The notes below the pieces were generated by a model. That model had not been told where the DNA came from. It saw only the letters and a program-made list of their open reading frames with translations, and did no database searches. A stretch of 32,000 bases of DNA from Edaphobacter aggregans. Lineage in GTDB: Bacteria > Acidobacteriota > Terriglobia > Terriglobales > Acidobacteriaceae. A program made the position numbers and the translations under genes. The stretch spans positions 4,980,001-5,012,000 of the forward strand of contig NZ_RSDW01000001.1 of NCBI RefSeq assembly GCF_003945235.1. Reading direction: 5' to 3'. This document shows positions 5,688 to 29,989 of this stretch, piece by piece (within the stretch, counting starts at the first letter, position 1; every line of letters starts with the position of its first letter).

Positions 5688-5796
5688 CGATGGCTGCAAC
5701 TTACGGGAAGTACGACAGTTATTTCTGACTACCTGCTGGTGCACATGCAAAACGATATATGGAGGTTTTCCAGTGAATGGTAGCTGAAAGGGTAAA

Positions 5797-9415: not shown

Positions 9416-9536
9416 GAGACCGCGCTTCCATTTCGGAGCCTCGTGATGGGAGAAAGACCGCACTATACGAAGAGTTTTTCTCCCATTTGACTGAATTTCA
9501 GATCCACCCTAAAACACTCAGCGAAAGGAGCAAACC

Positions 9537-10544: not shown

Positions 10545-10560
10545 ACACAAGGAGATCACA

Positions 10561-11202: not shown

Positions 11203-11282
11203 CTTCAACGAAATGTGGAATCACGGCGACAACATCGCCGTGCAGTAAGAATGCAGGCAAATCGCACAAGAAAGGAAACAAC

Positions 11283-11774: not shown

Positions 11775-11811
11775 TCCACTCTCGCTCGAGAAGGTGCGTT
11801 ACAGCAATTCA

Positions 11812-11836
11812 GGCGCTCTCAGGAGCGCCATTTTCG
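11812..11836 (+). terminator. Rho-independent terminator after ssb
   Basis: GGCGCTC-TCAG-GAGCGCC followed by ATTTTCGTT. Confidence 0.5.
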
Positions 11837-11903
11837 TTGCCCGAAAAGTATCGGGCGCTCATTAGGAGTCTCCCCTTAATCACTTCAATGAAAGGAATTT
11901 TCA

Positions 11904-12842
11904 ATGCAGAATGAATTCTCGGCCGAGCAACAGAAGCAGTTGCTCGAAAAACTCATCATTCCATTTCATCCCGACGCAATCAGCTGGCGTGTTACTAACA
12001 AGAGCAAAGACGGCAAGCGAGGCTGTGTCATTCCATACGGCGACCAGCGCGCCTACACTGACCGGCTCAACGAAGTCTTCACTCCCGCCGGGTGGACGCG
12101 TGCATATGACGTGACGCCGCTCTCGCCAGTCACCCGCACCAGGAAAAATGTAGCCATTCAGACCGGCAAGGTGATCGTGACCTGCGTCGTAACGATTCAC
12201 GGTCTTGGTTCACACAGCGGAAGCGGTGAGATGTGGGCCGATGACGATAATGCCATGACCCGTGCGGAAGCCCAGGCCTTCAAACGTGCCTGCTGCTGCT
12301 TTGGGCTCGGTCGGTACTTCTACGAATTCGCCGAGATGTGGGTTGATCTGGATGATTATGGCAATCCGCTTCGTATTCCTACTCTTCCCAAGTGGGCGCT
12401 TCCAGCCGGTGTGGTTCCGACAAAGGCCGAGCCGGTGCCTGTCGTCTCCGCGGCGCGGTCGCAGCCGAGCACAGCGAAGACAACGGAGAACGCCAAACTA
12501 GCCGCCTCTGGGTTGGATGCGGGGCTGACGCAACGAATCGAGAGCTTTCGTCAAGTTGTTGGCGACGCTCTCTACTTCGAGGTATTTCGTCGTGGTGGAC
12601 CTGCTCGGAATGCGCGTGAACTGCCCAGCGTGGGTGCCCAAAACTGGGTGGTGAAACAGTTGGAGACCCTCGATCGGGGCATCCAGCGGGTGCGCGTTCT
12701 TGCTGAAGACGTGCACGAGAACGTGTTCTATGGAGTACTCGATGCGCATAGGGTCCAGTCGATCGACAAGATCCCATCCTTCGAAGTCTTGAAGGCAGTT
12801 GTGACTGACCTGCAGAACGCGACACAAGGAGTCGCAGCCTGA
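11904..12842 (+). CDS. Rad52/Rad22-family single-strand annealing protein
   Basis: AAAGGA RBS. N-terminal domain with ISWRVTNKSKDGKRGCVIPYGDQRAYTDRLNEVF...GWT and the diagnostic-looking AEAQAFKRACCCFGLGRYFY block. The C-terminal half is unrelated and variable. Confidence 0.7.
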   Translation: MQNEFSAEQQKQLLEKLIIPFHPDAISWRVTNKSKDGKRGCVIPYGDQRAYTDRLNEVFTPAGWTRAYDVTPLSPVTRTRKNVAIQTGKVIVTCVVTIHGLGSHSGSGEMWADDDNAMTRAEAQAFKRACCCFGLGRYFYEFAEMWVDLDDYGNPLRIPTLPKWALPAGVVPTKAEPVPVVSAARSQPSTAKTTENAKLAASGLDAGLTQRIESFRQVVGDALYFEVFRRGGPARNARELPSVGAQNWVVKQLETLDRGIQRVRVLAEDVHENVFYGVLDAHRVQSIDKIPSFEVLKAVVTDLQNATQGVAA

Positions 12843-12887
12843 ACCCCAACCTACGTCGTTCTGCCCTTTGAGGCAGATACGAAACCG

Positions 12888-12920
12888 GAGCCTGCACTCT
12901 ACCGGAGCGCAGGCTCTTTT
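12888..12920 (+). terminator. Rho-independent terminator after the annealing-protein gene
   Basis: GAGCCTGC (12888-12895) pairs with GCAGGCTC (12909-12916), followed by TTTT. A smaller hairpin CTGCC-CTTTGA-GGCAG lies at 12861-12876. Confidence 0.6.
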
Positions 12921-12946
12921 CTCTTAGCCCCAACCAAGGAAGCCTT

Positions 12947-13186
12947 ATGAGTGTGCACAAGTGCTCGCTCTGCAACCGCCCCGCCGCCTGGCAGATCTGT
13001 GAAGAACTCTTCTGCGAAGTAGATAAAGAAAAGATCGTCGAACGCTTTGGGATCGATATTTTCTCCATGAAGCGTCTGTCCAGCTCGGAGAAGGATTTTA
13101 CCGTCCGCGGCAGATACAAACAGCCTGTCCAAGCAGTTTCTTCGTTTTCGCCGGAGAACTCCAAAAGGAAACAGAGGGCTCGCTAA
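12947..13186 (+). CDS. Small Cys-rich (zinc-ribbon-like) protein, 79 aa
   Basis: AAGGAAG RBS 4-5 nt upstream. N-terminal C-x2-C ... C-x4-C (CSLCNRPAAWQICEELFC); basic tail. Confidence 0.4.
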   Translation: MSVHKCSLCNRPAAWQICEELFCEVDKEKIVERFGIDIFSMKRLSSSEKDFTVRGRYKQPVQAVSSFSPENSKRKQRAR

Positions 13187-13280
13187 TGTACCGACCCTTT
13201 CTGCCCTCCGAGAGAAGGGGCGCATCGCACGCCTGAGTCCGTGCTCAGGTCCTCCCACACCAACAACCAAGGAGAAAGTC

Positions 13281-13484
13281 ATGGCAATCTCTGCTCGTTC
13301 ACGTCGCGGTACGTCTGTATCCTTCTGGCGCAACCACAATGCCATTCAAACCATGATGGCCCAGGCATGCATGCCTGCGCTACGCCCTGTACCCAGAGTG
13401 AAACACGAATTCATCCTTCCGCCCACGTCCCCGATTCGATCGACCAGTGGATCAGCACCGAAGGTCTTCATCGCAAGGGCATAA
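13281..13484 (+). CDS. Possible small protein (67 aa)
   Basis: Strong AAGGAG lies 6 nt upstream of the ATG, and a stable hairpin follows 7 nt after the stop. Composition is not very protein-like. Confidence 0.3.
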   Translation: MAISARSRRGTSVSFWRNHNAIQTMMAQACMPALRPVPRVKHEFILPPTSPIRSTSGSAPKVFIARA

Positions 13485-14009: not shown

Positions 14010-17000
14010 ATGCCATCTGAGCTACTTGCACTGCGGTTTGCGCCGCGCAAACACTATTGTTTGGTCGCAGCATACTCAATCCTTGGCTTGATTTCCGGAT
14101 GCCACCTATTGGTCGCGAGTTCAGTACCTCGGCCGACTTCCTTAGAGGCGCTCCGAATTGGGCTTTCCGAGGATAAACAAGTCCAGCTCGTCAACGGCTG
14201 GGACTCGGCATACGCTTCAGGCGACCTCGAGCTAGTCACCTCAGCGATAGATATGCTCGAGTCGGCACCGCCAACTTTGCGGCGCAGGATCATTGCCCAA
14301 GCGCACAACTCTACAGCTCTTCCGACACTCTTCAAATCATTGCGTCAACAACAGCAGAAGGACCGTCTGGTCAGCGCGCTTTTTCATTACCCGGATCTGG
14401 TCTCTCCACTTAGCAACGTGCTATCGACTGAACTGTTGTCATTGTCTATGACAAGAGAACAACTGCAATATATTACCGACATTGTCGTCTTGCTGAAGCT
14501 GCAACCGTCGCTGCCAGACGACCTCTATCGGCAGCTGGTTACTAAACAGGATTCGATTCAAGACCCGCAGGTTCGAGAAACAATCGGATCGTTGCTCCTA
14601 GCACACTCTGCGTCGCTCAAGAATCAGGATGCTCAAATCCGAGCGTGGCTGAAGTCAAAGAACTCAGATCAACGTGATCTTGCGACTAAATTGCTGATGC
14701 AAGCGGGCGCAAATCTACCGGATGGGATAGTTGACCAGGCGCTAAACGATCCAAATGGTCCACAAGTGGAAGCGATCAGGTACCTCGGAACTCAACCCAA
14801 GCCTCTATCTCAGAACGATTTGAAGATCCTGATTCCGATACTCGCCAAACCGCAGTCGTCAGAGGCTTGGGAGGCAACGTACAGCACCCTTCAGAAAAAG
14901 AATCCCGATTTCATCAGCACCTTTTCCACACAGTACAAGCAGCAGTTCGATGACTGGGCAAAGCTTAAGCCTTCGGTGTTGATTGGAATTCTTCGAACTC
15001 TTCCTGACGACAAGTCAGGTGAAATCGCCACATGGCCCCTCATCGCAAGCAAGGACGACGATTGCAACATCATGATTGCGAATCTGCTTCTATTGCGCCG
15101 TCGTGCTCTGGCCCACATTGATTTCGGTGAAGGATTGTGGATCGTTCTTCAGGGGCCTCAGACCTGCTCCGGATCGCGCGATGGTGAGGCCTCCATCCTC
15201 TTAGACCAAGTGCTCCATGCGAATCCCGTTGCTTTAGCTGAATTATCGACATTTCTTTCTCTGCGGACTCAGGATAGCAACTGGACAAACTTCACTTCTG
15301 GAATAACCAGCCAAACCGGATGGGAAGCTCTCTACAATGACGGTGGCTCTGGAACTTCCGTCCTGCAACTCGCTCTTTCGCCAGCTCTTACGAAACTACT
15401 GTCGAATGGAGACGAGGCTAAAGCACTGGATCTGCTGCGGCTCGGCGTTCCTTTTTCACCACCGATTTTGGGCAACGAGCCGTTCCTAGCTCGGTACCGA
15501 GGCCACACTGCGTCCTTAAAGGACCCCAGCCTCGAAATTCTAGGCCGGTTAGGCCACCTTCCAAAGGAAATCGCGGATGAGATCCGCGACGTCGCTATGG
15601 ATAGGACTAAGCCAACGACGACCCGTCAGATTGCTATCAGAGCGCTAGCGATGTTGGACGATTCTCAAAGCTATGTCGGAGAGTTCGTAAAGATCGCTCA
15701 GGAACCAATCGACCTACCCTCCGCCGCCGCGCTCAACGCGCTAACGGTTGTCTCTCAGTCTGGGTCACCTACCCCATCAGCTGTCTCGCCTTCTGCATCT
15801 TGGCTCGAGTCAGCCGCTGCTGATCCTCTCACACGAGAGGACGCTTCGCGGCTTCTCGAAGTATTGGCACTCAAGAACAGCGCATTTGGTCCGCTGTTGC
15901 TTCGCTCAATGAGCGACATCACAAGCTATCGCTGTTTGGACCTGGCGGTATTGGATCAACTTACACCCAAGCTTTGGCTCACAATTCTGGACGTCGGGCT
16001 CTCGAACGCCGACAAAATCGACAGGGCTCGCACTTGCGTCATGGTGTTGACCGCGAATCAGCCAAAAGCCACTCTAATAAGCTCCGCATTGACAGGGCCA
16101 AGATCACAGAAGGCACCGGAGAGATCATCCGATCGTCTCGCCTTGCTTTCAGGGTTGGACGGGGTGTGGGGTGAGACTCAAGGCCTCAATCGAGTAAGGG
16201 CGGCCGTTGCAAATCAAGTCGATTTGCTGTCTTCATCCCTCCCTTATGGAGTTGAAAGTCAGAAGCAACTTCGGAGCTGGTCAGATCGGTTGAAGAACGA
16301 GTTTCCCGAAGCATCACAGCGTATTAAGGGAGAGGCAACCAAACAAACCGCTGTTCTGGTAATCCTTGGCATCCCGCTCGCTGTAGCTGTCCATTTTCTC
16401 CTGTGGCTCTTACTTCTCTTCGTGTATCCGCGTTCACCAGCAATCCAGTCGGTGATCTTTTGGAATCCTATTGTCCGGAAGCTCTTGGCGCTTGGCTATA
16501 TGGACTTGATCCTGCTTTCAATGCCCTTTGTACGCAGGATCCTTTTTGGCCCGCTCAGCGAGCAAATGTTGGGGGAAGTGCTCCAACCCAACGAGGGCGA
16601 AATGGATCGCGTTGCCTATTTCCCTAAGGGACGAGTGCGCCGGCTCGTTACTGCCCAAGGCCTAGCCGAGAGCACGCCCACTGAAGAGGCCATTCTGACC
16701 GCGCTCGATCCGCTTCGACGACGGACATTGCTACTGGGAATGTCCGGGCTAGGAAAGTCGAGTTACTTGAGGTTTTCCCTTTATCAAAAGGCGCTACGCA
16801 AGGAGTTCTCCGTCTATCTGCCAGCCGCCCGTTGCCTTGGTGGTGTAGAAAGTGCAATCGCCAACCGCGTTGCGCTATTCTCTCAAGACCGTGATCTTTT
16901 ACACTCTCTCATTCATGCGGGTCGCCTTGAGATCTACATTGACGGTTACAACGAAGTAGATACAGCAACACAGGATGAAATCACGAGCTTCGCGGCGATG

Positions 17001-18401
17001 TTCAGCAGTGGACGTATTCTCGTGACCAGTCAAATACCCATTCGAGGCCTCACGCGGATAGAGACCCTTGAACTGCAGCCCCTACACGAGGATGAGATCG
17101 AGGAGTTTTTGATCGGTCGAGAGCCGGCTCTACCCGAAAACTCGCCTATTCGAGGTGACACCTTTCGGTTCGTGGCCAAAATGTATCTCGAAAATCTTTG
17201 GCGCAACTCTGCTACACATAGTGAGACAAAAGCTATTGCTCAAGTTCTGTCGAATCCGATGGATCTCACCACCGCTGCGATGATTTTGGGGAACGCCAAA
17301 GAACCCAGCCTGTTTGCTCTTCAGGAGCAGCAATTCGAAATGCTGCAGGAGCGATTCGTCCGGCACTACCAGCAATCTTATCGTACAGACCAGTTCTCCG
17401 AGGACGTCTTTACAAGAAGAGTGAGCGACGATGACGATCTTAGCAAATCAACCTACGACAAAGAGGTTGCCTCACTTATCGAATTCAAAATGGCTTTGGT
17501 CAGATCGGTAGAAGTCCCGGGTAAGCCGCCAAGGCAGGAAATACTGTTCCGCCACGATCGAATTCGAGACTATTTCACGCATTTCGCGTTCCTCAGTGAA
17601 AAGCAGGATCAACGTCGGTTCGATTATGCCAACGATAGTCGTTTCGCAGGTGTGTACGAATATCTTGCCAAGGTTCTTGACCTCGGATCCGCTGAGCGTT
17701 TGCGAGAACGGCTGCTGATGAGCGCCGTCGAGAGTCAAGATCACAGACTGAGCGATAGTTTCATCCGTCAACTCGCCTGGCGCCAGCAGTTCGCGTCCGG
17801 TGATCCATCTTGGCTGATTGACTATGACCTGCCGAGCGCACGAGATGCCGATCTTAAGTTCGACGCGTTGCAGTCTGAGAGAGCGAGCCTCGAAAGTCAA
17901 ATGCTACGCCTCAAAGAGACGATGGCCGGGTCTAGAACACTGACTCGCATGATCTCAACAGACGACGGCTCGGCGCTTCTGAGAGTTAGCGTGCAGTGTT
18001 TCGTAGCACTCGGAGGTTCAGTTACGACGTCTTCCACCGGGACTTCTTCTGAGAACCAACTAATCAATTCCCCGAGTGGTGTTCCATTCACATTGGCAAC
18101 GGTCTGTAATCGTGGGTCGATCAATTCCTTTCAACTGGAGCTGCTCATCCAAAGGCTGAAGGATGCATCTCGGCCGGTGTTACTTATTACCAATTCGAAC
18201 ACCTCGATGAAGCCAGATGAGAGACCAAAAGATATCACAGATGATGTGCTCCATAAATTGCTCGGACAAGGCATACTCTGCACCTCGGCGAGAGAGATCT
18301 ACGAAGCTTATGTGGCGCACGTTGCTGGCTCAACAGATGTGATATGGAATGATCTGGAGGCGCTATGGAAAGATATGCAGGACAGCCTCGTAAAGCGTTA
18401 G
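14010..18401 (+). CDS. Giant 1463-aa STAND NTPase: lipobox-like signal, HEAT-like solenoid, TM segment(s), NACHT P-loop domain, coiled coil, unknown C-terminal domain
   Basis: Uninterrupted 4.4-kb ORF. I-S-G-C at residues 28-31 after a basic/hydrophobic leader. HEAT-like strings (DPQVRETIGSLL, GPQVEAIRYLG, TTRQIAIRALAMLDD). 26-aa hydrophobic segment at 781-806 (nt 16350-16427). Walker A GMSGLGKS (nt 16737-16760), Walker B IYIDGYNEV (Asp at 16941-16943), RILVTSQ, LQPLHEDEIEEFL. Confidence 0.85.
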   Translation: MPSELLALRFAPRKHYCLVAAYSILGLISGCHLLVASSVPRPTSLEALRIGLSEDKQVQLVNGWDSAYASGDLELVTSAIDMLESAPPTLRRRIIAQAHNSTALPTLFKSLRQQQQKDRLVSALFHYPDLVSPLSNVLSTELLSLSMTREQLQYITDIVVLLKLQPSLPDDLYRQLVTKQDSIQDPQVRETIGSLLLAHSASLKNQDAQIRAWLKSKNSDQRDLATKLLMQAGANLPDGIVDQALNDPNGPQVEAIRYLGTQPKPLSQNDLKILIPILAKPQSSEAWEATYSTLQKKNPDFISTFSTQYKQQFDDWAKLKPSVLIGILRTLPDDKSGEIATWPLIASKDDDCNIMIANLLLLRRRALAHIDFGEGLWIVLQGPQTCSGSRDGEASILLDQVLHANPVALAELSTFLSLRTQDSNWTNFTSGITSQTGWEALYNDGGSGTSVLQLALSPALTKLLSNGDEAKALDLLRLGVPFSPPILGNEPFLARYRGHTASLKDPSLEILGRLGHLPKEIADEIRDVAMDRTKPTTTRQIAIRALAMLDDSQSYVGEFVKIAQEPIDLPSAAALNALTVVSQSGSPTPSAVSPSASWLESAAADPLTREDASRLLEVLALKNSAFGPLLLRSMSDITSYRCLDLAVLDQLTPKLWLTILDVGLSNADKIDRARTCVMVLTANQPKATLISSALTGPRSQKAPERSSDRLALLSGLDGVWGETQGLNRVRAAVANQVDLLSSSLPYGVESQKQLRSWSDRLKNEFPEASQRIKGEATKQTAVLVILGIPLAVAVHFLLWLLLLFVYPRSPAIQSVIFWNPIVRKLLALGYMDLILLSMPFVRRILFGPLSEQMLGEVLQPNEGEMDRVAYFPKGRVRRLVTAQGLAESTPTEEAILTALDPLRRRTLLLGMSGLGKSSYLRFSLYQKALRKEFSVYLPAARCLGGVESAIANRVALFSQDRDLLHSLIHAGRLEIYIDGYNEVDTATQDEITSFAAMFSSGRILVTSQIPIRGLTRIETLELQPLHEDEIEEFLIGREPALPENSPIRGDTFRFVAKMYLENLWRNSATHSETKAIAQVLSNPMDLTTAAMILGNAKEPSLFALQEQQFEMLQERFVRHYQQSYRTDQFSEDVFTRRVSDDDDLSKSTYDKEVASLIEFKMALVRSVEVPGKPPRQEILFRHDRIRDYFTHFAFLSEKQDQRRFDYANDSRFAGVYEYLAKVLDLGSAERLRERLLMSAVESQDHRLSDSFIRQLAWRQQFASGDPSWLIDYDLPSARDADLKFDALQSERASLESQMLRLKETMAGSRTLTRMISTDDGSALLRVSVQCFVALGGSVTTSSTGTSSENQLINSPSGVPFTLATVCNRGSINSFQLELLIQRLKDASRPVLLITNSNTSMKPDERPKDITDDVLHKLLGQGILCTSAREIYEAYVAHVAGSTDVIWNDLEALWKDMQDSLVKR

Positions 18402-18952
18402 CACGCTTACTGCGAAGGGCATCGTTCGCATTGGGCCTGGCGGTCATACTACTCGCCGGCGCGCACGGTTCAAGGGCTGAGGTGTTTGAGTCTCGCTATT
18501 TGCGTTTTAGCTTGCCTGAAGGGTGGAAGTGCGATCTTGAAGACCATGTGTTTGTATGTGAGCCACCGCACACCAAGGGGCAGAAGGTTAACAAAATCAT
18601 CATGTTTGCGGTCAAGTATCCGGGAGCCGATGACAACTTGTCCTCGTACATGGAGTATCTCAAAACGAATAGATCGATAACGAACGGTTCATCTCTGATA
18701 GATGGACCAAAAATCGACACAGATCTCGGGGCTGTATCGTGGGTGGAGGCTACTCATTATGAATCCGAATTGAAAGGGTTCAATACAACCTATCTGGCTA
18801 CAGTCTCCAACGGACTCGCACTACTTGTTACTTTTAGTGGCGGTAAGGCAGGGTTTTCAGAGTTTCAGCAAATGATGAAGCCCTGTATCAGAAGCCTCGA
18901 AATCAAGAAGAACTGGCGTGATGCCGAGCGCCAGCCTGGCAAGAAAAAATAG
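18365..18952 (+). CDS. Secreted/periplasmic 195-aa protein, translationally coupled to the NACHT gene
   Basis: GGAGG (18356-18360) lies 4 nt before the ATG. 37-nt overlap with the upstream CDS. Signal peptide RRASFALGLAVILLAGAHGSRA/E. Mixed beta-rich mature part beginning FESRYLRFSLPEGW. Confidence 0.65.
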   Translation: MERYAGQPRKALARLLRRASFALGLAVILLAGAHGSRAEVFESRYLRFSLPEGWKCDLEDHVFVCEPPHTKGQKVNKIIMFAVKYPGADDNLSSYMEYLKTNRSITNGSSLIDGPKIDTDLGAVSWVEATHYESELKGFNTTYLATVSNGLALLVTFSGGKAGFSEFQQMMKPCIRSLEIKKNWRDAERQPGKKK

Positions 18953-19043
18953 CCTCGGAAAGGCCGTTGCACCGCGGTTTTCAATGAACCATGGATGGCG
19001 AGTTCATTTCCACAGAGCCTGTCCTAAGTTCCATTAGCCAAGA

Positions 19044-19091: not shown

Positions 19092-20843
19092 TCAGCTGCC
19101 GGGATAACTTACCTTGCCGGCCAGCTGTTTAAATTCAATTGAGTCACTCCAACTGATGGAGCCTGTCGGCGATATCTCGCCAACACCATTGAAGTCCGTG
19201 ACTCTTCCCACAAGATCGGCCAGGCTTGGCCGGTCTGCGTCGTAACGGGACGCGCGGTAGAGGAAAGTGATCCGCGCAGCCAGTGGGCCAACCTCACTCC
19301 AGGTGTTATCCGGATCCTGCCGGCTATTGGCATACGTCCCAGGTTTGGCCGCAAGCAGGACCACATTGCTCGAATGCAGATAAGGCTGGGTGTCAGCCAC
19401 ATGCTCCTGCAGGGTGCCCAGCCGGGACAGAGTGTCGCCAGCAGCGCCTTCGGGACCGACATATACGAAGATATTCTGGCCCTTGTCGGAAACGATTCCA
19501 AGTTCTGACCTCATCCGCTCAAACTCATCCATACGAACACAACCGTCGACGATGAGCGCAAATGGAGTATGGGTCTGCGCGAGTTGCGCATAGAGCTCGC
19601 GAAGAGGCAGAAACCCCGGTGGGAGGGTCTCGAGATTCGCATCGATGGCGTTGGCGAGACGCGCGAGATCACCGATTTTGCTGTCGACCGCGTGCTCGAT
19701 CAATTCCGGCGATCGTGTCGGCAGATTCGCTGGTATTTGTGAGGCCGACCCGAGAATGAGTGCGATGTCGCCACTTGGCCAGGTCATCGTATGCCCGACG
19801 TAGTACGCAATCAGAAACCGACTGTTGTTCCGCTGGACAGTCGTGGCCACCGTCGCGAGAAAGTCTCGGATCCGTTGCTCGGTGAGCGGTCGATCTTCGG
19901 TGCTAATCATGTCTAACCGGGCCGCGGGAGAGTACCGGGCGAGTGTGTTGCCGAATAGCTTTGCGCTGTCAGCATTCCAATCTTGCCGCAGCATGGCTAG
20001 ATTGGGGTAATGACCCGAAGCGATTGTCACCAGAGTCCAAGCAGCGGGTTGTGTCGAGGTTGCCGGAATGACGCTCGACGTGTTTTTTGGCTGGGGACGT
20101 ATCGGGGAGAGGACGACATCGCTTGGCTCCACTCCCAAATGGGTCAGGATAAAGTGGGCGCTACTGGCTTCGAAAGCGAAGATTACCGGGTCAAGTATTT
20201 CAACCCTCACTTCGCCTTGCTGTGCGCGGCTTGCGTCAATGCGGAAGTGCTCCGAATTGATGTTGGACTTAGCAGCCTTGCTCCAGAGCGAACCCTGATC
20301 GGCCCCCTTTCGTTTCAGTAGATAGGTGAGGCGGCCTTGGTAGGCTCTGGTGATAACAACAGGATCGGTACCTTTGTTGGCCGCGCTTTGGGCCTCCTGA
20401 GAGGCCAACAGCTTGCGCTTGAGTGCCGCTACATCCATCTCCAGTATCTTGCCGTCCGTCACCTGAAGGTCCAGCCCAATCTCTTGTTTGCTTGAGGCGG
20501 CCTCGCTGAGCCACGGCACTCCCAGCGAACCCAGAGCGCTGCCAGCTATCTGGTCGTCTGTGGTGAGTTGGAAGCTGCTGCCTGTGTGTAGATCGGTATC
20601 GTTCGCATCGGCAGGATTGAGGATGAACAGTTTTTCCGTAACCAGAATTGTTCCGGGATAGCGGGATGCCGCAGGCGGCAGATTAATGAAAAAGTCGGCA
20701 GCGCGACCCTTGGGGAGGTTCAGTGCGGCAGCAAGGCTCGATCTGAGATCAGCATTTCGCGTAAAAAGGCCAGGAAGAAAGAACACGAGAGCTGTAAGTA
20801 CGACCATGGCAATCAACGTCAGACCGACTTGCTTGCGCGTCAT
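19092..20843 (-). CDS. Membrane-anchored protein: N-terminal TM, unknown beta-rich ~210-aa module, Pro/Ser/Thr linker, caspase-like (clan CD) cysteine peptidase domain
   Basis: ATG at 20843 with AAAGGTGA upstream; the ORF track extends to GTG 20915. TM segment VGLTLIAMVVLTALVFFLPGLF. His block FLIAYYVGH (His codon at 19791-19793), Cys block FALIVDGC (Cys codon at 19539-19541), then a p10-like VVLLAAKPGTYANS...GPLAARITFLY. Confidence 0.6.
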   Translation of the reverse strand: MTRKQVGLTLIAMVVLTALVFFLPGLFTRNADLRSSLAAALNLPKGRAADFFINLPPAASRYPGTILVTEKLFILNPADANDTDLHTGSSFQLTTDDQIAGSALGSLGVPWLSEAASSKQEIGLDLQVTDGKILEMDVAALKRKLLASQEAQSAANKGTDPVVITRAYQGRLTYLLKRKGADQGSLWSKAAKSNINSEHFRIDASRAQQGEVRVEILDPVIFAFEASSAHFILTHLGVEPSDVVLSPIRPQPKNTSSVIPATSTQPAAWTLVTIASGHYPNLAMLRQDWNADSAKLFGNTLARYSPAARLDMISTEDRPLTEQRIRDFLATVATTVQRNNSRFLIAYYVGHTMTWPSGDIALILGSASQIPANLPTRSPELIEHAVDSKIGDLARLANAIDANLETLPPGFLPLRELYAQLAQTHTPFALIVDGCVRMDEFERMRSELGIVSDKGQNIFVYVGPEGAAGDTLSRLGTLQEHVADTQPYLHSSNVVLLAAKPGTYANSRQDPDNTWSEVGPLAARITFLYRASRYDADRPSLADLVGRVTDFNGVGEISPTGSISWSDSIEFKQLAGKVSYPGS

Positions 20844-20923
20844 CCGTTTCACCTTTCTATTTCCATGCCACGATGCCCGCAATTCTAAGTGCTGCCGCCG
20901 TAGCGGGCAACTCACTCCCGTCG

Positions 20924-22778: not shown

Positions 22779-22902
22779 CGACCACATTTCTGGCAAATGG
22801 CCGGGGTTGATTTCGCGGAAGGGAGGCATAAAGTGGGCAGCTAATGCAATTTTATGGCTCAAGTCGCACCCCTTTATAAACAACGTGAAAGGAACCCTCA
22901 GC

Positions 22903-23961
22903 ATGCGCAATGCGGGCAGGCTTAAGCTCGGTTATTATCCGCTGCCTACAGAAGAAGGCCACTGGCTGCGGCGGCTTCTCCAAAGCACGGAACCCTTCAG
23001 TGCAATCGACCCTTGTGTCGGAATGGGGGCAGCTCTGCATCTCATTACCGCTGATCTTCCATGTCGACGTTATGGCGTCGAACTCGATGCGGAGCGGGCG
23101 CTCGCCGCTTCCCGGTCGGGGATCGAGACGGTACAGGGAGACCTCTTCGACGCACATGCCAAGGTAGAGTCGTTCTCTCTCTTGTACCTTAATCCCCCAT
23201 ATGACTCAGAAATAGGGACGCTCAACAACCAGCGCATGGAGCTGCTCTTTCTCGAGCACACCTACCGTTGGCTTGTGCACAGCGGGGTCCTCTTGTTTGT
23301 AGTGCCGGAGAAGCGGCTTTCGGTGTGCATTCCGCTGTTGGCAGCGAACTTCACCGGTTTTCGTTTGTTCCGGCTCAACGATCCCGAATCCATCCGCTTC
23401 GAACAGGTCGTGCTTGCGGCGGTACGAAAGCCGATGCGGGGGGATGCGATGGAAGCGAATCGCTCTGTGCTGCAACGACTGATCTTCAATACGGAGCCTC
23501 TCAATCTGGAAGACGAGCATGAACCGTACTACTTACCCGCAACGCCACCTGCGGCCATTGCTTACCGTGGACTTCCCTTCGACGCGATCGAAGACCTGAT
23601 TCCCAACTCGCCCGCATGGAAGCAGGTTGCGCCTTTTCTGTTGCCGAAAGAAGAGATGGCTTCCGGCCGGCCGATCACACCCCTGCACGCGGGCCACGTC
23701 GGCCTGCTCTGCACGGCAGGTTTGCTCAACGGAGTCTTCGGTGAGGGAGCGGATCGTCACATCGCACGGTGGCGGTCGGTGAAGCACACCACCATCAGCA
23801 AGGAGAAGGAAGACAACGTAGAGATCATCCGCAAGCGCGAGCGTTTCTCGAACGAACTTTCCCTCGTTTACCAGGACGGACGAACCCTCGTCCTCACCGA
23901 GTCTGCAAAGACAGTGGAGGCAGAAGATGCAGAATGCACACCTACGGCTGGGGCAGCTTGA
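22903..23961 (+). CDS. SAM-dependent DNA methyltransferase, NPPY type (probably N6-adenine)
   Basis: GAAAGGA RBS. Motif I IDPCVGMG (nt 23005-23028) precedes motif IV LNPPY (NPPY at nt 23191-23202). No adjacent restriction endonuclease recognised. Confidence 0.8.
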   Translation: MRNAGRLKLGYYPLPTEEGHWLRRLLQSTEPFSAIDPCVGMGAALHLITADLPCRRYGVELDAERALAASRSGIETVQGDLFDAHAKVESFSLLYLNPPYDSEIGTLNNQRMELLFLEHTYRWLVHSGVLLFVVPEKRLSVCIPLLAANFTGFRLFRLNDPESIRFEQVVLAAVRKPMRGDAMEANRSVLQRLIFNTEPLNLEDEHEPYYLPATPPAAIAYRGLPFDAIEDLIPNSPAWKQVAPFLLPKEEMASGRPITPLHAGHVGLLCTAGLLNGVFGEGADRHIARWRSVKHTTISKEKEDNVEIIRKRERFSNELSLVYQDGRTLVLTESAKTVEAEDAECTPTAGAA

Positions 23962-24571
23962 GTATCTGCGCTCCACTGCCAACATCCAGACACGGATACG
24001 GCTGCAGGTAGATCGCTACATGGGCGAAGAGGCTGACGGGTATTTACTCAGCCTTTATGGCGGTGATGCCGAGGTCGGCGCCATCGCCGCGGCGATCCAT
24101 GAGAAACATCCGTTCACACTGACGTTCCCCGACGGCAAAAGCAAGACGGTCAGCATGGGAGCGGATGCGTCCTGCTACCGCGGCAGCGTGGCGGTTCCCG
24201 GCCGCAAACAACCACTGCGTCATCTGGTCGCTGTCTCCCAAGCGCTTCATGCGAACGGAGCAGCAGGGAAGACCTACCTGCTCAATTACGAGCGATCACT
24301 GGCCTGGTCGGCACTAGTGAGCTTCCTCGGACTTCCGGCAGACCCGCGATGGGGTGCGGCGATGATGGATGTTCTGGAGCGAGAAGAAAAGGTGCAGGAG
24401 CTTGAGGGCATCGGCTGTCAGCCGGTAGTGATTCATGCCACGCGAAGCAGCCTGCTCGAGGCTGTATCGAGGGGTCTTGGACGGCGGGAGCTTTGCTTCC
24501 CGGAGGTCAACGGGCCTGTGTTCTGGCCTTCATTTCGCATCGGGGAGGCCTTGAATATTGGGAAGTTCTGA
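23927..24571 (+). CDS. Hypothetical 214-aa protein, overlapping and coupled to the methyltransferase gene
   Basis: GGAGG lies 6 nt upstream of ATG 23927. 35-nt overlap with the MTase CDS. No motif recognised. Confidence 0.6.
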   Translation: MQNAHLRLGQLEYLRSTANIQTRIRLQVDRYMGEEADGYLLSLYGGDAEVGAIAAAIHEKHPFTLTFPDGKSKTVSMGADASCYRGSVAVPGRKQPLRHLVAVSQALHANGAAGKTYLLNYERSLAWSALVSFLGLPADPRWGAAMMDVLEREEKVQELEGIGCQPVVIHATRSSLLEAVSRGLGRRELCFPEVNGPVFWPSFRIGEALNIGKF

Positions 24572-24691
24572 GTCTCGCATGAGGCGGTAGGTTTTCCAAG
24601 AGAATGCGGAGCGTTCCAATGCAGAGAAGAGCCATTTATCGGTGAGAGTTGGCTTGGTTCCACAAATCCGATTTCACATTCCCCAAATGAA

Positions 24692-24721
24692 TTGGCACTT
24701 TTAGTGTCAAGCGCGTATATC
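24692..24721 (+). promoter_or_regulatory. Candidate sigma70-type promoter for mcrBC
   Basis: TTGGCA - 18 nt - TATATC, about 80 nt upstream of the mcrB ATG. Pattern match only. Confidence 0.25.
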
Positions 24722-24800
24722 TTGACCGGCCTTTGTTGGTTGCTGCGCAGGGCGGTTATATTTGTAGCCCTACTCGAACTCCGAGCTGAGGTGAACCGTC

Positions 24801-26444
24801 ATGGCGGACGAAATCGGAGCATTTACGTGGACATCCTTTTATCAGGAGCTTGCGGACAAACTGGTACTGTACCGCGATCGCCAGGAAGAACTCATTTCTA
24901 TTCTGGAAACGCTGCGAGGCAAGAAATTAACGATTACTCCCTTCGAGGACAAAGATGAGACCGGTCGCCGTTTCGCGCTGACCATTATCGACCCCTTTAC
25001 ATTCTTCGGGACATTCAACCGTCGGATTGAAACCAACACACGGGTTGCGATTCTGCGAGAACTAAAGTCTATTTTCGACCTGTCCGCTGACGCGCCCTCC
25101 GACTTCACCGGAATCCCGGTATTGGACCCGCGCAATTCCTGGTTCTTGGTATGGAGTCACCTCCGAAAAGCTACAGATGTGCCGCAATTATGGGATGTGT
25201 TCGATAAGGCGCTTCTTCCAAACGCAATGCAAAATATTGAATTTGCCCGCGGATTCGATGCAGCAGTTCAAATCCGAAACGTCGATATAAACCTAACAAT
25301 GGGTTTGTTTTGGATTCGGCCATTTACCTTTCTCAGTTTCGACAGCAATAACCGCAAATTCTTAAACATCAAGCTTCCGAGGGAAGGTTTGTCCTTCGAG
25401 TTCTACCGTACGACGTTGGAAAGAATCAAAGCAGAACGGGACGAGGACTTTCCTCACATCTCCCGCTCAGCATGGCTCGCCGGCAATGAGCCGGTAGTTG
25501 GCACCACCCACGGGACACCCAGCGTTGCGAAGCCGAAAACAGCTGTACCCATTCAAGGCGCCTCCCAATACTCGGTGGCGGCCATGTTGGCGGAGGGCGT
25601 CTTCTTGGATGCACGTAGGATCGAAGAAGCGCTCCACCGTTGGAAGACTAAAAAAAACCTGATCCTGCAGGGGCCACCCGGTGTGGGGAAGACATTTGTG
25701 GCCGCGAAATTGGCCTACGCGCTTCTTGAAGAGCGGAAATCGTCCCGAGTGGAGGTGGTCCAATTCCATCCCTCATTCGCCTATGAAGATTTTGTTCGTG
25801 GATATCGTCCAACAGTTGAGGCGGGCAAATTCGAACTGATGGACGGTCCTCTACGTAAGATTTGCAAGCGAGCTGATAACGATCCTGAACAAAAGTATGT
25901 GCTGCTAATCGATGAGATCAACCGTGCCAATCTCTCGCAGGTCTTCGGTGAGCTATTGATGCTGCTGGAGAGTGACAAGCGTGGTGCGAACTACTCTGTT
26001 ACTCCCCTCTATCCTGCCCAAGAGGAAGAAAAGTTTCATGTCCCCGAGAATCTCTTTTTCATCGGAACAATGAACATCGCGGACCGTTCCCTCGCGCTGG
26101 TCGACTTTGCTCTGCGACGCCGGTTTGCCTTTCTCACCCTTGAGCCGAACTACGGATTGCCCTTTCGTACGTGGCTTGAGGAGCGCGGCATGAACAGTTT
26201 GCTCACAGAGAAGATCGTGCAGCGGATGACCGCACTCAACAGCCAGATCAGCAATGACTCTTTTCTTGGATCCGCGTACCAGGTCGGCCATAGTTTCTTT
26301 TGTCCTCCAGGTGATGATTTCTCAGAACTTGGCGACCAGTGGTACAGAGAAGTAATCGAGACGGAGATCGAGCCACTCTTACAGGAGTACTGGTTTGACA
26401 AGCGCGAGAACGCCAAATCGGCAACAGATGCTCTATTAGCGTGA
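24801..26444 (+). CDS. mcrB: McrB-family AAA+ GTPase subunit of a modification-dependent restriction system
   Basis: Walker A GPPGVGKT (nt 25671-25694), Walker B LLIDEINRANLSQVFGELLMLLE (from nt 25902), McrB signature FIGTMNIADRS (MNIADRS at nt 26070-26090) and ALRRRFAF. About 280-aa N-terminal domain of a different type. Confidence 0.9.
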   Translation: MADEIGAFTWTSFYQELADKLVLYRDRQEELISILETLRGKKLTITPFEDKDETGRRFALTIIDPFTFFGTFNRRIETNTRVAILRELKSIFDLSADAPSDFTGIPVLDPRNSWFLVWSHLRKATDVPQLWDVFDKALLPNAMQNIEFARGFDAAVQIRNVDINLTMGLFWIRPFTFLSFDSNNRKFLNIKLPREGLSFEFYRTTLERIKAERDEDFPHISRSAWLAGNEPVVGTTHGTPSVAKPKTAVPIQGASQYSVAAMLAEGVFLDARRIEEALHRWKTKKNLILQGPPGVGKTFVAAKLAYALLEERKSSRVEVVQFHPSFAYEDFVRGYRPTVEAGKFELMDGPLRKICKRADNDPEQKYVLLIDEINRANLSQVFGELLMLLESDKRGANYSVTPLYPAQEEEKFHVPENLFFIGTMNIADRSLALVDFALRRRFAFLTLEPNYGLPFRTWLEERGMNSLLTEKIVQRMTALNSQISNDSFLGSAYQVGHSFFCPPGDDFSELGDQWYREVIETEIEPLLQEYWFDKRENAKSATDALLA

Positions 26445-27532
26445 TGGACAGTACAAATACCGTTATGGACATCGCCACCGGCATTCCTGTTCGAAATGCC
26501 TGGTATCTTCTCCTCTACGCGTGGGACTTGGCAATGTGGCGTGATAACTGGAATGCCGAGTCGGAGGAGGCGCCACATCTACTTGGGCTACTTGCTAAGG
26601 TTTTAGCCAGGAACGCTCATGCTCTGCTGCGTCACCAGCTTCGCAGGTCATTCGTTCGGACATCTGCTCCCCTCCGTGGAATCCGCGGACGAATCGATTT
26701 CGCTGCCAGCCTGAAGCATCAGTCTTTCGAACGCGGGCGGGTAGATTGCATCTTTCCCGAGTTAAGCATCGATACAGTGCCTAACAGGATTCTCCGGTCG
26801 ACAATGTCTCGTCTCGCTTCGGAGCCGGCGCTCAGATCCCACAATCCCAAACTTGATGAGCAACTTCGCCACGAGCTCCGCAGCCTTGTACGAATGATGG
26901 ATGGGGTACGGATAATTTCTGTAACTGTTCGCGATTTTGCAAGCATACAGCTCGGCCGAAACGATAGAGACTATGCCGTTCCGATCGCGGTTTGCCGTCT
27001 AATCCACGCTTTGCGATTGCCTACGGAGAAATCAGGAGATGCAGCACTCGCTGCGCTCTTGCGCGACGAGATCAAGTTTCACGATCTTTTCGAGCGCTTC
27101 GTTCGCAATTTTTATGCACTCCATCTCAACGAATACTATCGCGTAAAAAGGGAAACACTGAAGTGGTTCGATGAGCTTGGTAGTGAGCTTGTCCCGGAAA
27201 TGCGCACCGACATGACGATCGTGGAGAGGGCTCCGCCCTGGAGGCGCACGATCATCGACACAAAGTATTCAATTGCCGCGCTGTCAAAACATCCACACGG
27301 CGATCAAAAATTCAAGTCCCAGAATCTATACCAGATCTACACCTACTTACGGACCCAGGAGAACTTGAGTGATGCCCACCGGTGCGCTGGTGGATTGCTT
27401 TTATACCCCACTAATGGCTACGACGTTCGTGGTGCAATGCTGGTCCAAGGTCACCGTGTCGCTGTCGCAACAGTAAATCTCGGTCAGCCCTGGCAGAATA
27501 TCGAACATCAATTGCTCAGTCTGATCGGTTGA
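26444..27532 (+). CDS. mcrC: McrC-family nuclease subunit
   Basis: The ATG overlaps the mcrB stop (TGATG at 26442-26446). PD-(D/E)xK-type RTDMTIV ... IIDTKYS (nt 27209-27265) followed by QNLYQIYTY, as in McrC. Confidence 0.85.
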   Translation: MDSTNTVMDIATGIPVRNAWYLLLYAWDLAMWRDNWNAESEEAPHLLGLLAKVLARNAHALLRHQLRRSFVRTSAPLRGIRGRIDFAASLKHQSFERGRVDCIFPELSIDTVPNRILRSTMSRLASEPALRSHNPKLDEQLRHELRSLVRMMDGVRIISVTVRDFASIQLGRNDRDYAVPIAVCRLIHALRLPTEKSGDAALAALLRDEIKFHDLFERFVRNFYALHLNEYYRVKRETLKWFDELGSELVPEMRTDMTIVERAPPWRRTIIDTKYSIAALSKHPHGDQKFKSQNLYQIYTYLRTQENLSDAHRCAGGLLLYPTNGYDVRGAMLVQGHRVAVATVNLGQPWQNIEHQLLSLIG

Positions 27533-27700
27533 TTCAATGTTTCAACTGTCAAGATGATCATCTCTAGAGGTCTTGGATCATTTACGAAGTCCTGGCATCA
27601 TCAGATGAGTATCCTCTCCAACGCTTAGAAAGCTCCCCTATCGAGGCCATCCCAACGCTGGCCTTTTCTTTTGCTGATTCGCGCTTTCAGGAGCCCCATC

Positions 27701-29989
27701 GTGGAAACATATTTTGACTATCTACGCGCTATGGCGCATGCGCTCGGGGATCGTATCGTTCAAACTTACCCGGCATTACAGACGCCTAAAGACGCACCCG
27801 CAGTGGCGCTGAAAACATTGTTGCGCAGGCCTCTGCCGGCGCAGGCGCTGGCGATCACTGGCCTTGCAAAGTATCTCAAAACCTCACGATCCGCGCGGAT
27901 CGTGGCTGAGTGCGGTGCAGGGAAGACCTTCATGTCGTTGGGCACGATGCATGTGCACGCCGGTGCGAGGCCATACACCGCTCTAGTGATGTGCCCGCCT
28001 CACATCGTACATAAGTGGGCGCGCGAAGCCCTGTTGACCGTGCCTCATGCCCGGGCGTTTATCGTCGAGGATCTGCGCAATGGTGGCGATCCGAAGAACA
28101 GCCACGGCATCGTTGAAGTGAAGCTCGATAAGGGACAGACTGTCGTTCGGGGTATCACGACCACGCTGTCAAAGCTCCGCTGCATGGGACGGAAGGGATG
28201 GAGGGAAAAGTGCCCGCAGCCCGCATTCTTCATTATGGGCAAGGAGAAGGGCAAACTCGGCTACTTCTGGAAGCACGCCTTTGCCGTAGCAAAGTCTGGA
28301 CCGGAGTTGGGCGGGTTAATTAACCCCGATACAGGGCACGCCGTCGCGTCGAAGGATGGAGGTTACCTGAGCACCCTAGACCTGCGCGATGAGAAGTTCA
28401 ACGAGAGTTACACGGCAGGAAAGGAAGGAACGACTCGTTTTTCACCCCTGTGGCAGGCAGATCGCGAGAAGATCCAGCGCATGGCTCCGCTCGAGTTCGT
28501 GGGCAGGTACATGAAGGGCTGGTGGGACTATGCGGTCGCCGATGAACTGCATCAGCTCGCGGGTGACACCGCCCAGGGTAATGGTCTCGGTGTCCTGGCT
28601 CGCTGCTCGGAAAAGCTGATTGCTCTTACCGGGACTCTTATGGGCGGCTACGCCGATGATCTCTACAACATCTTCTACCGCATGGAACCGTGGCAGATGG
28701 TGAAGGCGGGATACGAGGCTGGCAGTCAGGGGCGCCGGGACTTTCAGGAGCAGTATGGCGTACTGGAGACAGTCGAAAAAGTGCGGCAGTACGATAACGC
28801 CTGCTCGAAGGCACAGAAGCGGACTGTGCAGGTTCTCCGCAAGCCGGGGGCCTCGCCGCTTCTATTCGGCAAGTACCTGATGGAGTCGACGGCGTTCATT
28901 ACGCTTGAGGACATCTCCGATCAGCTGCCGGCGTACGAGGAGACGGTTCTCTCGGTCGAGATGGGTGAGACCCTCGCGAAGGCGTACGGGTCGATCGAGG
29001 CCGACATCACCGAGGCGATGAAGGCGCATCGCGGCAACAAGAGCCTGATGAGCGTAATGCTCAACACGTTGTTGTTGTACCCCGACCATCCCTACGGTAT
29101 CGGGCCGATCTTCGGGAAGACGTACGACCCGAAGGAAGGCCGCATGGTGCCATTCTTCGTCACCGAGCCAGCGGATCTTCCGGAGGCCGACACCTACGCC
29201 AAGGAACAGTGCCTCATCGAAGATATCCGGGAGGAGCTGCGGCAGGGCAGGCGGTGCCAGGTCTACGCGACATTCACCGGCAAGCACGATGTGACCGGTC
29301 GGCTGGCGCAAGTGCTTCAGCAGGCAGGTTTTTGGGTGGCTGTTCTTCGTTCTGCGGTTCCCACCGACAAGCGGGAGGCGTGGTATGAGCGACAGCTGCG
29401 GGCGGGCGTTGAGGTGGTCATCTGTCACCCTAGGTTGGTGGAAACCGGGCTCGATCTGCTTGCCTTTCCGACCCTCTACTTCTACGAAACGGGATACTCG
29501 CTCCACACGCTGCGGCAGGCAAGCCGCAGGTCGTGGCGGATCGGGCAGAAATACCCGGTTCGGGTAAAGTTCCTGGCTTACCGGTCTACGATGCAGGAGA
29601 CCTGCGTCCGCCACATGGGCAAGAAGATGCTGGTCGCGCTCATGATGGAAGGGAAGTTCTCCGGCGAAGGGCTGCAATCGCTTGATGCCAACGAAGACCT
29701 GCTGACCGCCATGGCCCGCGAGCTCGTGGAAGAGGGAGGCGTCGGAGAATCGGCCGACGCGGTGTGGAAGGATTTGGAACGGGAACGGGCCAAGCACGCT
29801 CCGCCCGCAGTCGAAAGGCCTCCGGTAGCGCTGGATCCGACCGAAGCTGCGATACGGCAGATTTCGGCGGAGACCGCTGCGCCTCTGGGACCGCAGCTCG
29901 TCCACTCCGCACCATGGCCGAAACAGAAGGAGAATCCGATCTGGCCTACCGGACACATGGTAGGCGAACAGATGAGGCTCTTCGGCTGA
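27701..29989 (+). CDS. SNF2-like superfamily-2 helicase/ATPase
   Basis: GTG 27701 with AGGAG 8 nt upstream; the ORF track starts at TTG 27671. Motif I AECGAGKT (nt 27905-27928), Ia VMCPPHIVHKW, II DELH (nt 28541-28552), III ALTGTLMGG, VI QASRRSWRIGQ (nt 29516-29548). Confidence 0.85.
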   Translation: METYFDYLRAMAHALGDRIVQTYPALQTPKDAPAVALKTLLRRPLPAQALAITGLAKYLKTSRSARIVAECGAGKTFMSLGTMHVHAGARPYTALVMCPPHIVHKWAREALLTVPHARAFIVEDLRNGGDPKNSHGIVEVKLDKGQTVVRGITTTLSKLRCMGRKGWREKCPQPAFFIMGKEKGKLGYFWKHAFAVAKSGPELGGLINPDTGHAVASKDGGYLSTLDLRDEKFNESYTAGKEGTTRFSPLWQADREKIQRMAPLEFVGRYMKGWWDYAVADELHQLAGDTAQGNGLGVLARCSEKLIALTGTLMGGYADDLYNIFYRMEPWQMVKAGYEAGSQGRRDFQEQYGVLETVEKVRQYDNACSKAQKRTVQVLRKPGASPLLFGKYLMESTAFITLEDISDQLPAYEETVLSVEMGETLAKAYGSIEADITEAMKAHRGNKSLMSVMLNTLLLYPDHPYGIGPIFGKTYDPKEGRMVPFFVTEPADLPEADTYAKEQCLIEDIREELRQGRRCQVYATFTGKHDVTGRLAQVLQQAGFWVAVLRSAVPTDKREAWYERQLRAGVEVVICHPRLVETGLDLLAFPTLYFYETGYSLHTLRQASRRSWRIGQKYPVRVKFLAYRSTMQETCVRHMGKKMLVALMMEGKFSGEGLQSLDANEDLLTAMARELVEEGGVGESADAVWKDLERERAKHAPPAVERPPVALDPTEAAIRQISAETAAPLGPQLVHSAPWPKQKENPIWPTGHMVGEQMRLFG

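Follow-up and report, generated by a model that had tools for sequence, protein, structure and literature searches.

The 32,000-nucleotide stretch of Edaphobacter aggregans DNA analysed here (contig NZ_RSDW01000001.1, positions 4,980,001 to 5,012,000; hereafter the window) encodes a 583-residue protein in which a bacterial-gasdermin-like domain and a divergent caspase-like protease domain are joined in one polypeptide behind an N-terminal hydrophobic helix. We believe, with a probability of roughly two in three, that this protein is a single-chain gasdermin system composed of a membrane anchor, a gasdermin domain, an inhibitory segment with a linker, and a protease with a His351/Cys435 dyad, which would activate itself at the membrane. 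Structural models and alignments of homologues establish both folds, the order of the domains, and the conservation of the dyad and of the architecture. An earlier note on this DNA, made from the sequence, had put forward the hypothesis that a caspase-like protease carries a gasdermin in the same chain, in cis, and at the level of folds and architecture that hypothesis is supported. Gasdermin-caspase pairs are the core of pyroptosis; in the known bacterial systems the partners are separate proteins of the cytoplasm, two or more in number, and the protease is usually tied to a sensor.

Results

An exhaustive HMMER search with the family profile matched 242 cluster representatives (50% clustering), 178 of them at E ≤ 1e-10, and given the size of this family the features of the window protein are not due to chance. 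Sixty-two full-length representatives share the layout of anchor, gasdermin-like domain and caspase-like domain. The halves can be separated as modules: the N-terminal (N) module also occurs alone, as proteins of ~250 residues, and the C-terminal (C) module also occurs without the N module. None of the scanned members from the 242 clusters (50% identity) passes a curated Pfam cut-off. A genome scan with two exact peptide patterns returned five loci, all in Acidobacteriota/Terriglobia, and a word-indexed search with the N-module profile gained few new proteins. Conservation is given below for an alignment of 26 close homologues with 42-90% identity to the window protein (A1), for alignments of window residues 1-262 with stand-alone relatives (A2, 23 members; A3, 39 sequences), and for wider counts over 101 relatives for the protease residues and 104 for the segment between the domains.

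The gasdermin-like pattern was first recognised in the A2 and A3 alignments and then checked with PADLOC, Pfam, PDB sequences and structure. Residues 29-250 (~220 residues) form a conserved domain that is also found on its own, so that the beta-rich module of ~210 residues described in the earlier note is a real domain. AlphaFold2, applied to residues 1-262 with the 39 sequences of A3, gave a model with a mean predicted local distance difference test score (pLDDT) of 90.1 and a predicted template modelling score (pTM) of 0.83. When this model was compared with the PDB by Foldseek, the six best matches were all bacterial gasdermins (bGSDMs), namely 7N50, which ranked first (E 1.5e-6, template modelling score 0.45-0.48), 7N51 and four chains of 7N52 (E 1.5e-6 to 2e-3); below them came GSDMB, GSDMD and GSDMA3, and then CDC/MACPF toxins. 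The model has long strands at residues 85-96, 122-136, 161-178 and 211-232, and the inserts between strands at 97-121 and 179-210 are helical and rich in Gly, Ser and Ala. In gasdermins, inserts at such positions refold into membrane hairpins (PMC10153256, PMC10584675).

The relatives add a link at the level of sequence. The PADLOC bGSDM model PDLC02986 is matched by 11 of the 23 members of A2, including P0173 (E 1.2e-8, residues 99-241 on profile positions 95-239 of 257) and P0185 (E 1.7e-5), the others standing at about 1e-3 and all matches being collinear; the stand-alone relatives are themselves retrieved by the family profile at E 1e-15 to 1e-37. The Pfam Gasdermin family PF04598 is matched weakly by one relative (E 0.0036, in a scan mode that lists no cut-off). 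Searched against PDB sequences, the A2 and A3 profiles gave four or five weak matches (E 0.2-1), among them the bGSDM entries 8SL0 and 7N51 and the GSDMA3 entry 6CB8, in alignments that centre on the ...VFAFE... strand. In our models, then, residues 29-250 adopt the inactive form of a gasdermin N-domain. Three other identities considered for these residues, namely periplasmic binding protein, adhesin and SPFH-type module, were ruled out by the gasdermin fold match; the Foldseek comparison that the earlier note had proposed for its beta-rich module thus returned a gasdermin fold and no ordinary periplasmic-binding or adhesin fold.

For the C module, the evidence comes from a first AlphaFold2 model of the full-length protein with 26 homologues. 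Its mean pLDDT is 62, and in it the N module and the contacts between the domains are uninformative; the core of the protease has pLDDT values of 84-93 over residues 270-350 and is confident at 270-360 and 410-440, the insertions being poor. The top 50 Foldseek matches of the C module in the PDB are all caspases, Arabidopsis metacaspase-9 or MALT1 (best E 8.1e-5). The elements follow the order seen in caspases: strand, helix, strand, helix, strand ending in YYVGH351, hairpin, helix, strand ending in IVDGC435, strand, and the motif AAKPGT, with His351 at the end of strand 343-354 and Cys435 at the end of strand 428-436. Both putative catalytic residues, which the earlier note had picked out as His375 and Cys459, are invariant in the 26 homologues and are kept in 99 and 98 of the 101 wider relatives, respectively; of the same 101, 98 retain D433 and 94-95 retain P501-G502.

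Peptidase_C14 (PF00656) has weak matches in five of 32 distant relatives (best E 4.4e-4), P0099 scores 16.8 bits against a cut-off of 21.4 bits, and the window protein itself has no match to PF00656. Since PDB sequence searches gave no sequence-level alignment to a solved caspase, and the family profile no meaningful match there, the dyad is placed from the fold match together with the order of secondary structure. As modelled, the C module is a predicted, divergent clan-CD protease that lies outside the boundary of Pfam C14, in agreement with the caspase-like domain that the earlier note had read from the order of its elements.

The N module is also found with other partners. It is joined to HEAT repeats in P0136, P0142, P0144, P0161, P0165, P0168 and P0176, and to a metallo-beta-lactamase (MBL) fold in P0157, and in P0138 a lipobox (LSAGC) is followed by an HExxH zincin (HEFAHH) and then by the gasdermin-like module. 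One could read the module, accordingly, as a membrane-proximal regulator or scaffold, the output of the system being proteolysis of other envelope proteins or a non-lethal conduit for the release of vesicles or contents. Its union with non-protease partners such as the HEAT repeats and the MBL fold would suit such a role, as would its occurrence alone with no identifiable protease nearby. However, the full topology of an inactive gasdermin is kept, including the Gly/Ser/Ala-rich helix and loop regions between strands 85-96 and 122-136 and between strands 161-178 and 211-216, which match the membrane-hairpin parts, and two types of protease, caspase-like and HExxH zincin, are fused to the module, as is predicted of a protease-activated effector; we regard the regulatory role as improbable.

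Between the two domains lies the region in which a single-chain gasdermin system would be cut. Right after the last core strand, VIFAFEASSAHFI (residues 220-232; FAFEASSAHFI), comes a segment spanning residues 233-250 in which L236, P240, V243, P247 and P250 are invariant in the 26 homologues of A1; among the 104 wider relatives, 81 retain L236 and 78 retain G237. A strand at 242-248 is modelled with pLDDT above 90 in the model of residues 1-262, and the stand-alone relatives stop shortly beyond the segment. In the full-length model, pLDDT is below 50 across 236-263. The earlier note had described a Pro/Ser/Thr-rich linker here; the description holds for residues 251-266, which are variable and modelled at low confidence, and fails for residues 233-250, which are conserved and modelled as structured. 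By position, residues 233-266 probably correspond to the inhibitory C-terminal peptide of 20-40 residues of bGSDMs. The Runella bGSDM is cleaved at a Leu-Gly P1-P1' pair (10.1101/2021.06.07.447441), and by analogy Leu236-Gly237 is perhaps the site at which the protease cuts.

The single N-terminal transmembrane segment that the earlier note had placed at its residues 30-51 lies at residues 6-28; residues 3-26 form a helix in the AlphaFold2 model of residues 1-262, and a comparable hydrophobic segment is present in 81 of the 83 relatives that have the N module. In these 81 proteins a short N-terminal flank, basic throughout the set, holds 2.7 Lys or Arg residues on average, and the mean net charge drops from +2.5 before the helix to +1.2 after it, which together form the signature of an N-in signal-anchor. 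The window protein carries +2 before the helix and +1 after it (RNADLR), and no AxA site follows its 23-residue hydrophobic segment. Eleven stand-alone relatives have a short hydrophobic core that ends in an AxA-type site directly before the first gasdermin helix (D-L/F-R/K...), and these look like carriers of cleavable Sec signal peptides; in P0081 a Sec-type signal peptide precedes both the gasdermin and the caspase modules. Furthermore, Cys435 is the sole cysteine of the window protein, exactly one cysteine is found in 43 of 62 fused relatives, and cysteine has an overall frequency of 0.29%, a scarcity of cysteines besides the catalytic one that fits a free-thiol enzyme in an oxidising compartment. 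We therefore think it reasonably likely that both domains face the periplasm. The predicted export of both domains beyond the cytoplasm refines the earlier note, which had not foreseen it.

The same molecule, activated by the same proteolysis, could instead face the cytoplasm, with the helix tethering it to the inner leaflet in place of a palmitoyl group and with intracellular infection cues as its trigger. The characterised bGSDM systems all act from the cytoplasm (10.1101/2021.06.07.447441; PMC10153256), basic residues follow the helix of the window protein as well as precede it, and P0112 and P0099 have a cytoplasmic-looking extension before the helix or lack an obvious signal sequence. Yet the short basic N-terminal tail of the 81 proteins is typical of N-in anchors and signal peptides, cleavable-type signal peptides occur in the 11 stand-alone relatives, the fusions include one with a lipobox and one with a Sec signal, and non-catalytic cysteines are strongly depleted. 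A cytoplasmic orientation seems unlikely to us on this balance.

An extracytoplasmic location would also be expected of an exported, offensive pore-forming toxin that acts against foreign bacterial membranes after processing by its own protease domain. Those stand-alone relatives that carry cleavable signal peptides would be exported in soluble form, gasdermins have been proposed to descend from secreted cytolysin-like toxins, and bGSDM-like proteins without proteases have been reported (PMC10153256). The window protein, however, has a 23-residue anchor of the uncleaved type with no AxA site, which should keep its gasdermin part on the inner membrane of the producer, and no immunity or secretion-system gene is conserved beside the gene at the examined loci; that it serves as such a toxin is very improbable.

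Several points weigh against the self-activating, membrane-anchored system that we favour. The whole window protein has no match in Pfam, NCBIfam or PADLOC, and its sequence link to bGSDMs is only transitive, through the relatives, the link by fold being direct. The template modelling scores from Foldseek are moderate for both domains, at 0.41-0.48 for the bGSDM matches and at 0.37-0.62, relative to the target, for the caspase-like domain. The full-length model, at a pLDDT of 62, is poor and gives no information on how the protease is held back from its own gasdermin. D433-G-C435 resembles the metacaspase D-x-C motif, and might favour a basic P1 residue over Leu. The topology is read from sequence rules alone, and the palmitoylated N-terminal cysteine, which matters in the bGSDMs studied, is absent from the window protein. 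There is no sensor domain in the protein and no conserved partner gene across the examined loci. Finally, no recognisable protease gene lies beside three stand-alone gasdermin-like relatives, on contigs of only 3-7 kb.

Gene structure and genomic context

The source open reading frame (ORF) spans 19092-20915 on the reverse strand and would encode 607 residues if counted from its GTG, the start used in the earlier note. However, all 35 homologues (35/35) begin at the ATG at 20843 (MTRKQ...), and because they do so, and because a ribosome-binding-like site precedes that ATG, we take the true gene to be 19092-20843. The ORF is thus a real gene in which all the features listed by the earlier note are present, with its start moved and the earlier residue numbers 24 too high. 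The encoded protein is 100% identical to Edaphobacter aggregans EDE15_4193. A weak match to a sigma-70-like promoter lies upstream (Table 1); such matches are no more numerous in the region than in shuffles, and this one is only suggestive of a separate promoter for the gasdermin-caspase gene.

Table 1. Features of the gasdermin-caspase gene and its surroundings, in coordinates of the window
Feature	Position	Strand	Remarks
Gene for the gasdermin-caspase fusion protein, complete	19092..20843	-	583 residues and stop; coordinates checked by translation
N-terminal hydrophobic helix, residues 6-28, VGLTLIAMVVLTALVFFLPGLFT	20760..20828	-	23 uncharged residues after MTRKQ; predicted uncleaved signal-anchor (N-in, C-out)
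Bacterial-gasdermin-like pore-forming domain (predicted), residues 29-250	20094..20759	-	AlphaFold2 and Foldseek; relatives match PADLOC bGSDM
Conserved segment, residues 233-250, LTHLGVEPSDVVLSPIRP	20094..20147	-	Candidate autoinhibitory C-terminal peptide and cleavage region
Leu236-Gly237, candidate scissile bond	20133..20138	-	Conserved pair in the loop that follows the last core strand; by analogy only
Variable Pro/Ser/Thr linker, residues 251-266, QPKNTSSVIPATSTQP	20046..20093	-	Not conserved in A1; low model confidence
Divergent caspase-like (clan CD) cysteine protease domain (predicted), residues 267-581	19101..20045	-	Foldseek and order of secondary structure
Codon of putative catalytic His351 (YYVGH)	19791..19793	-	Codon verified
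Codon of putative catalytic Cys435 (IVDGC)	19539..19541	-	Codon verified
Ribosome-binding-like AAGGTGA	20849..20855	-	5 nt 5' of the ATG, 6 nt counted from the GGTG core; read from sequence
Sigma-70-like promoter match TTGCCC-17-TAGAAT	20882..20910	-	Inside the 80-bp gap between the upstream gene and the ATG
Terminator-like hairpin followed by T run	18951..18965	-	127 nt past the stop codon; pattern match only
VirD4/TraG-like coupling protein	1443-3362		
AEP-TOTE primase	9537-10544		
SSB	10992-11774		
Rad52-like protein	11904-12842		
Distant GapS1-like protein, 591 residues	20924-22699	-	Directly upstream of the gasdermin-caspase gene; NCBIfam NF047931, E 9e-8, far below cut-off
DUF6094/mad2-like methyltransferase	22807-23961	+	
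McrB	24801-26444	+	E 3e-88 to PRK11331
McrC	26441-27532	+	McrBC spans 24801-27532
SNF2/DpdE-like helicase	27671-29989	+	
Sipho_Gp157	30180-30854		

In its gene content the window resembles an island of conjugative-element and defence genes; a run of restriction-type defence genes occupies 22807-29989 on the forward strand, and no tRNA gene lies within the window. The neighbourhoods of homologues in Silvibacterium and on five metagenomic contigs hold integrases, recombinases, a Lit-like U49 peptidase, CHAT-TPR and nSTAND1-TPR genes, and helicases. No neighbour is common to the window and the Silvibacterium, L003, L004, L010, L011 and L012 loci, which supports the view that the gene is an autonomous, one-gene cargo unit. 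In the Silvibacterium locus a Sipho_Gp157 gene (L001 3447-4058) stands after a very long ORF, ~6 kb from the homologue, and the window and Silvibacterium copies may ride related elements.

Two neighbours were considered as partners of the gasdermin-caspase gene and set aside. The GapS1-like gene recurs in three loci: the window; L005 of a Terracidiphilus metagenome-assembled genome (MAG), where a copy at 2-439 is 79% identical and holds the same position; and, distantly, L010 of a Terriglobia MAG, where a 24%-identical gene at 10529-12214 lies ~800 bp downstream of a 55%-identical gasdermin-caspase gene. It is absent from the other loci and, being so, was rejected as a component of the system and treated as a co-resident of the island. 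The second, an ORF of 1463 residues (14010-18401, forward strand), has a lipoprotein-type signal, LISGC (Cys31), a long N-terminal half that looks like helical repeats, a hydrophobic segment at ~776-794 and a Walker A motif, GMSGLGKS, at residue 910. It has no Pfam, PADLOC or NCBIfam match, and its layout suggests that a repeat sensor in the periplasm is linked to a STAND-like NTPase in the cytoplasm; it was dropped as a partner, as no related gasdermin-caspase locus holds a homologue of it. The end of this ORF is overlapped by one of 195 residues (18365-18952, forward strand) with a signal-peptide-like N-terminus.

At two of the other loci, genes of sensor or protease type lie close to the homologue. 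In L003 an nSTAND1-TPR NTPase gene (4117-7503) is ~500 bp upstream on the same strand, and in L011 genes for a Peptidase_U49 (Lit-like) protein and a TPR-CHAT protease (9004-13383) are just downstream. These neighbours may reflect co-residence in defence islands or an occasional partnership with a sensor.

The wider family is varied in its additional domains. Longer gasdermin-caspase relatives of 750-950 residues (P0042-P0068) have a conserved C-terminal extension of ~270 residues that ends in L.W and weakly matches, over several repeats, the YWTD beta-propellers of LRP4 (E 6.7e-6, whole chain). A Pfam scan of these variants found nothing, and the extension, which has no counterpart in the window protein, could be a sensor or a binding domain. 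Other relatives (P0112, P0099, P0081, P0058 and P0060) carry 100-220 residues N-terminal to the gasdermin module. In P0112 a helical domain of cytoplasmic appearance is followed by a poly-Pro stretch and a transmembrane helix, and in P0081 the signal peptide is followed by a beta-rich domain and a coiled coil. The only Pfam match among these relatives is a weak one to C14, in P0099. The stand-alone N-module proteins of ~250 residues form a family of their own (P0106-P0193), many with cleavable-type Sec signal peptides, and one of the three stand-alone relatives on short contigs adjoins a DsbA gene.

Discussion

From the two folds, their order and their conservation we infer a course of cleavage, pore formation and cell fate for the single-chain system. 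In the resting state, segment 233-250 and the attached protease would lock the gasdermin sheet. Activation would probably come from the proximity or oligomerisation of anchored molecules, or from an envelope or infection cue, and proximity-induced activation of the anchored molecules is our simplest guess for the trigger. The active protease would then cut past the last gasdermin core strand, at Leu236|Gly237 or at a site in the following linker, either in cis or between neighbouring molecules. This cut would remove the inhibitory segment together with the protease and leave the gasdermin tethered by its N-terminal helix. Once freed, the gasdermin would refold, oligomerise and perforate the cytoplasmic membrane, most likely from the periplasmic side, and the cell that carries it would die or be arrested. 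In the setting of a mobile or defence island, such a gene may serve as an abortive-infection or addiction-type module.

We tentatively extend this proposal to an extracytoplasmic system, a less probable step than the self-activating molecule itself. Here the fusion would lie on the periplasmic face, would need no cytoplasmic sensor and would respond to envelope cues such as phage attack, wall damage or loss of the mobile element, perforating the membrane from outside. The clade, with its Sec-secreted and lipoprotein gasdermin-like members and its fusions to a zincin, HEAT repeats and a beta-lactamase fold, would be a living intermediate between secreted pore-forming toxins and intracellular gasdermins.

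Systems in which a bGSDM gene stands beside a gene for a caspase-like (Peptidase C14/CHAT) protease have been described in Runella zeae, Bradyrhizobium and Vitiosangium (Johnson et al., 2022, 10.1101/2021.06.07.447441; 7N50, 7N51, 7N52). Like these two-gene systems, the window protein is modelled with an inactive gasdermin N-domain fold that has a short C-terminal segment instead of the large eukaryotic repressor; it has a caspase-fold cysteine protease as partner, with the gasdermin first and the protease second, and it is found in the setting of a mobile or defence island. Past its last core strand it has a conserved Leu-Gly, as at the Runella cleavage site. In contrast to the two-gene systems, it is one polypeptide, it has a predicted transmembrane or signal-anchor helix in place of the palmitoylated N-terminal cysteine, it is predicted to be periplasmic rather than cytoplasmic, its protease is without a repeat or NACHT sensor, and its domains have diverged too far for the Pfam and PADLOC models to recognise. 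The palmitoylated cysteine is itself common and not universal among bGSDMs, the Gillisia protein being without an N-terminal cysteine (10.1101/2021.06.07.447441).

Fusions that involve gasdermin-like domains have been reported before. A gasdermin-protease fusion is mentioned in a clustering of the AlphaFold database, with A0A2C5ZLK3 as the example (Barrio-Hernandez et al., 2023, PMC10584675). Like the window protein, that example has an N-terminal gasdermin followed by a protease domain, which the authors read as a hint of activation by cleavage; the mention comprises one sentence and one example, and the anchor, a description of the family and the bacterial Acidobacteriota clade are not given there. 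In Gammaproteobacteria, Ig-like domains of the cytolysin type are joined to bGSDM-like proteins (Johnson et al., PMC10153256), and in Gloeobacter a LysM-like domain is joined to a bGSDM (PMC13475620). These fusions also combine a divergent gasdermin-fold module with an extra domain, some of them without a separate protease gene, and they have been discussed as links between gasdermins and secreted pore-forming toxins (PMC10153256; PMC13475620). Unlike the window protein, they have binding domains rather than proteases as partners, and no N-terminal anchor has been described for them. In the literature that we searched in full text, no bacterial gasdermin-caspase fusion that is anchored in the membrane or exported is described.

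The proposed logic is also that of other protease-gated systems. As with caspase-1/-4/-11 and gasdermin D in mammals, a caspase-fold protease would strip off an inhibitory C-terminal part so that the N-domain could form pores; the mammalian proteins differ in that they are separate, have a large C-terminal repressor, are cut after Asp, and are cytosolic and activated by inflammasomes. Prokaryotes have further protease-gated death effectors with EACC1, Pepco, MBL-fold and alpha/beta-hydrolase modules (PMC12642450), in which, as we propose for the window protein, a latent membrane or enzymatic effector is set free when a linked caspase-like or serine protease cuts at a specific site. The relative in which the N module is fused to an MBL-fold domain recalls the MBL-fold effectors of that group (PMC12642450). 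Unlike the window protein, the EACC1/Pepco-type effectors have unrelated folds and are usually encoded by separate genes beside sensor-fused proteases. The folds and the logic are thus already known; the new features are the single chain, an anchor where other bGSDMs are palmitoylated, a location that is likely extracytoplasmic, and the absence of a sensor.

A natural single-chain version would be the minimal form of a gasdermin-caspase system, and it raises the question of how self-cleavage is restrained. It also offers a simple experimental handle, with one gene, two point mutants and one predicted cut site, and the presence of an anchor instead of lipidation bears on the role of the N-terminal palmitoyl group in the classical bGSDMs. 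Since the family goes unseen by Pfam, NCBIfam and PADLOC, censuses of defence systems undercount gasdermins, at least in Acidobacteriota and soil metagenomes. If the periplasmic topology is true, killing by gasdermins would not be restricted to the cytosolic side of the membrane, and the family would lend concrete support to the published idea that gasdermins originated from exported pore-forming toxins.

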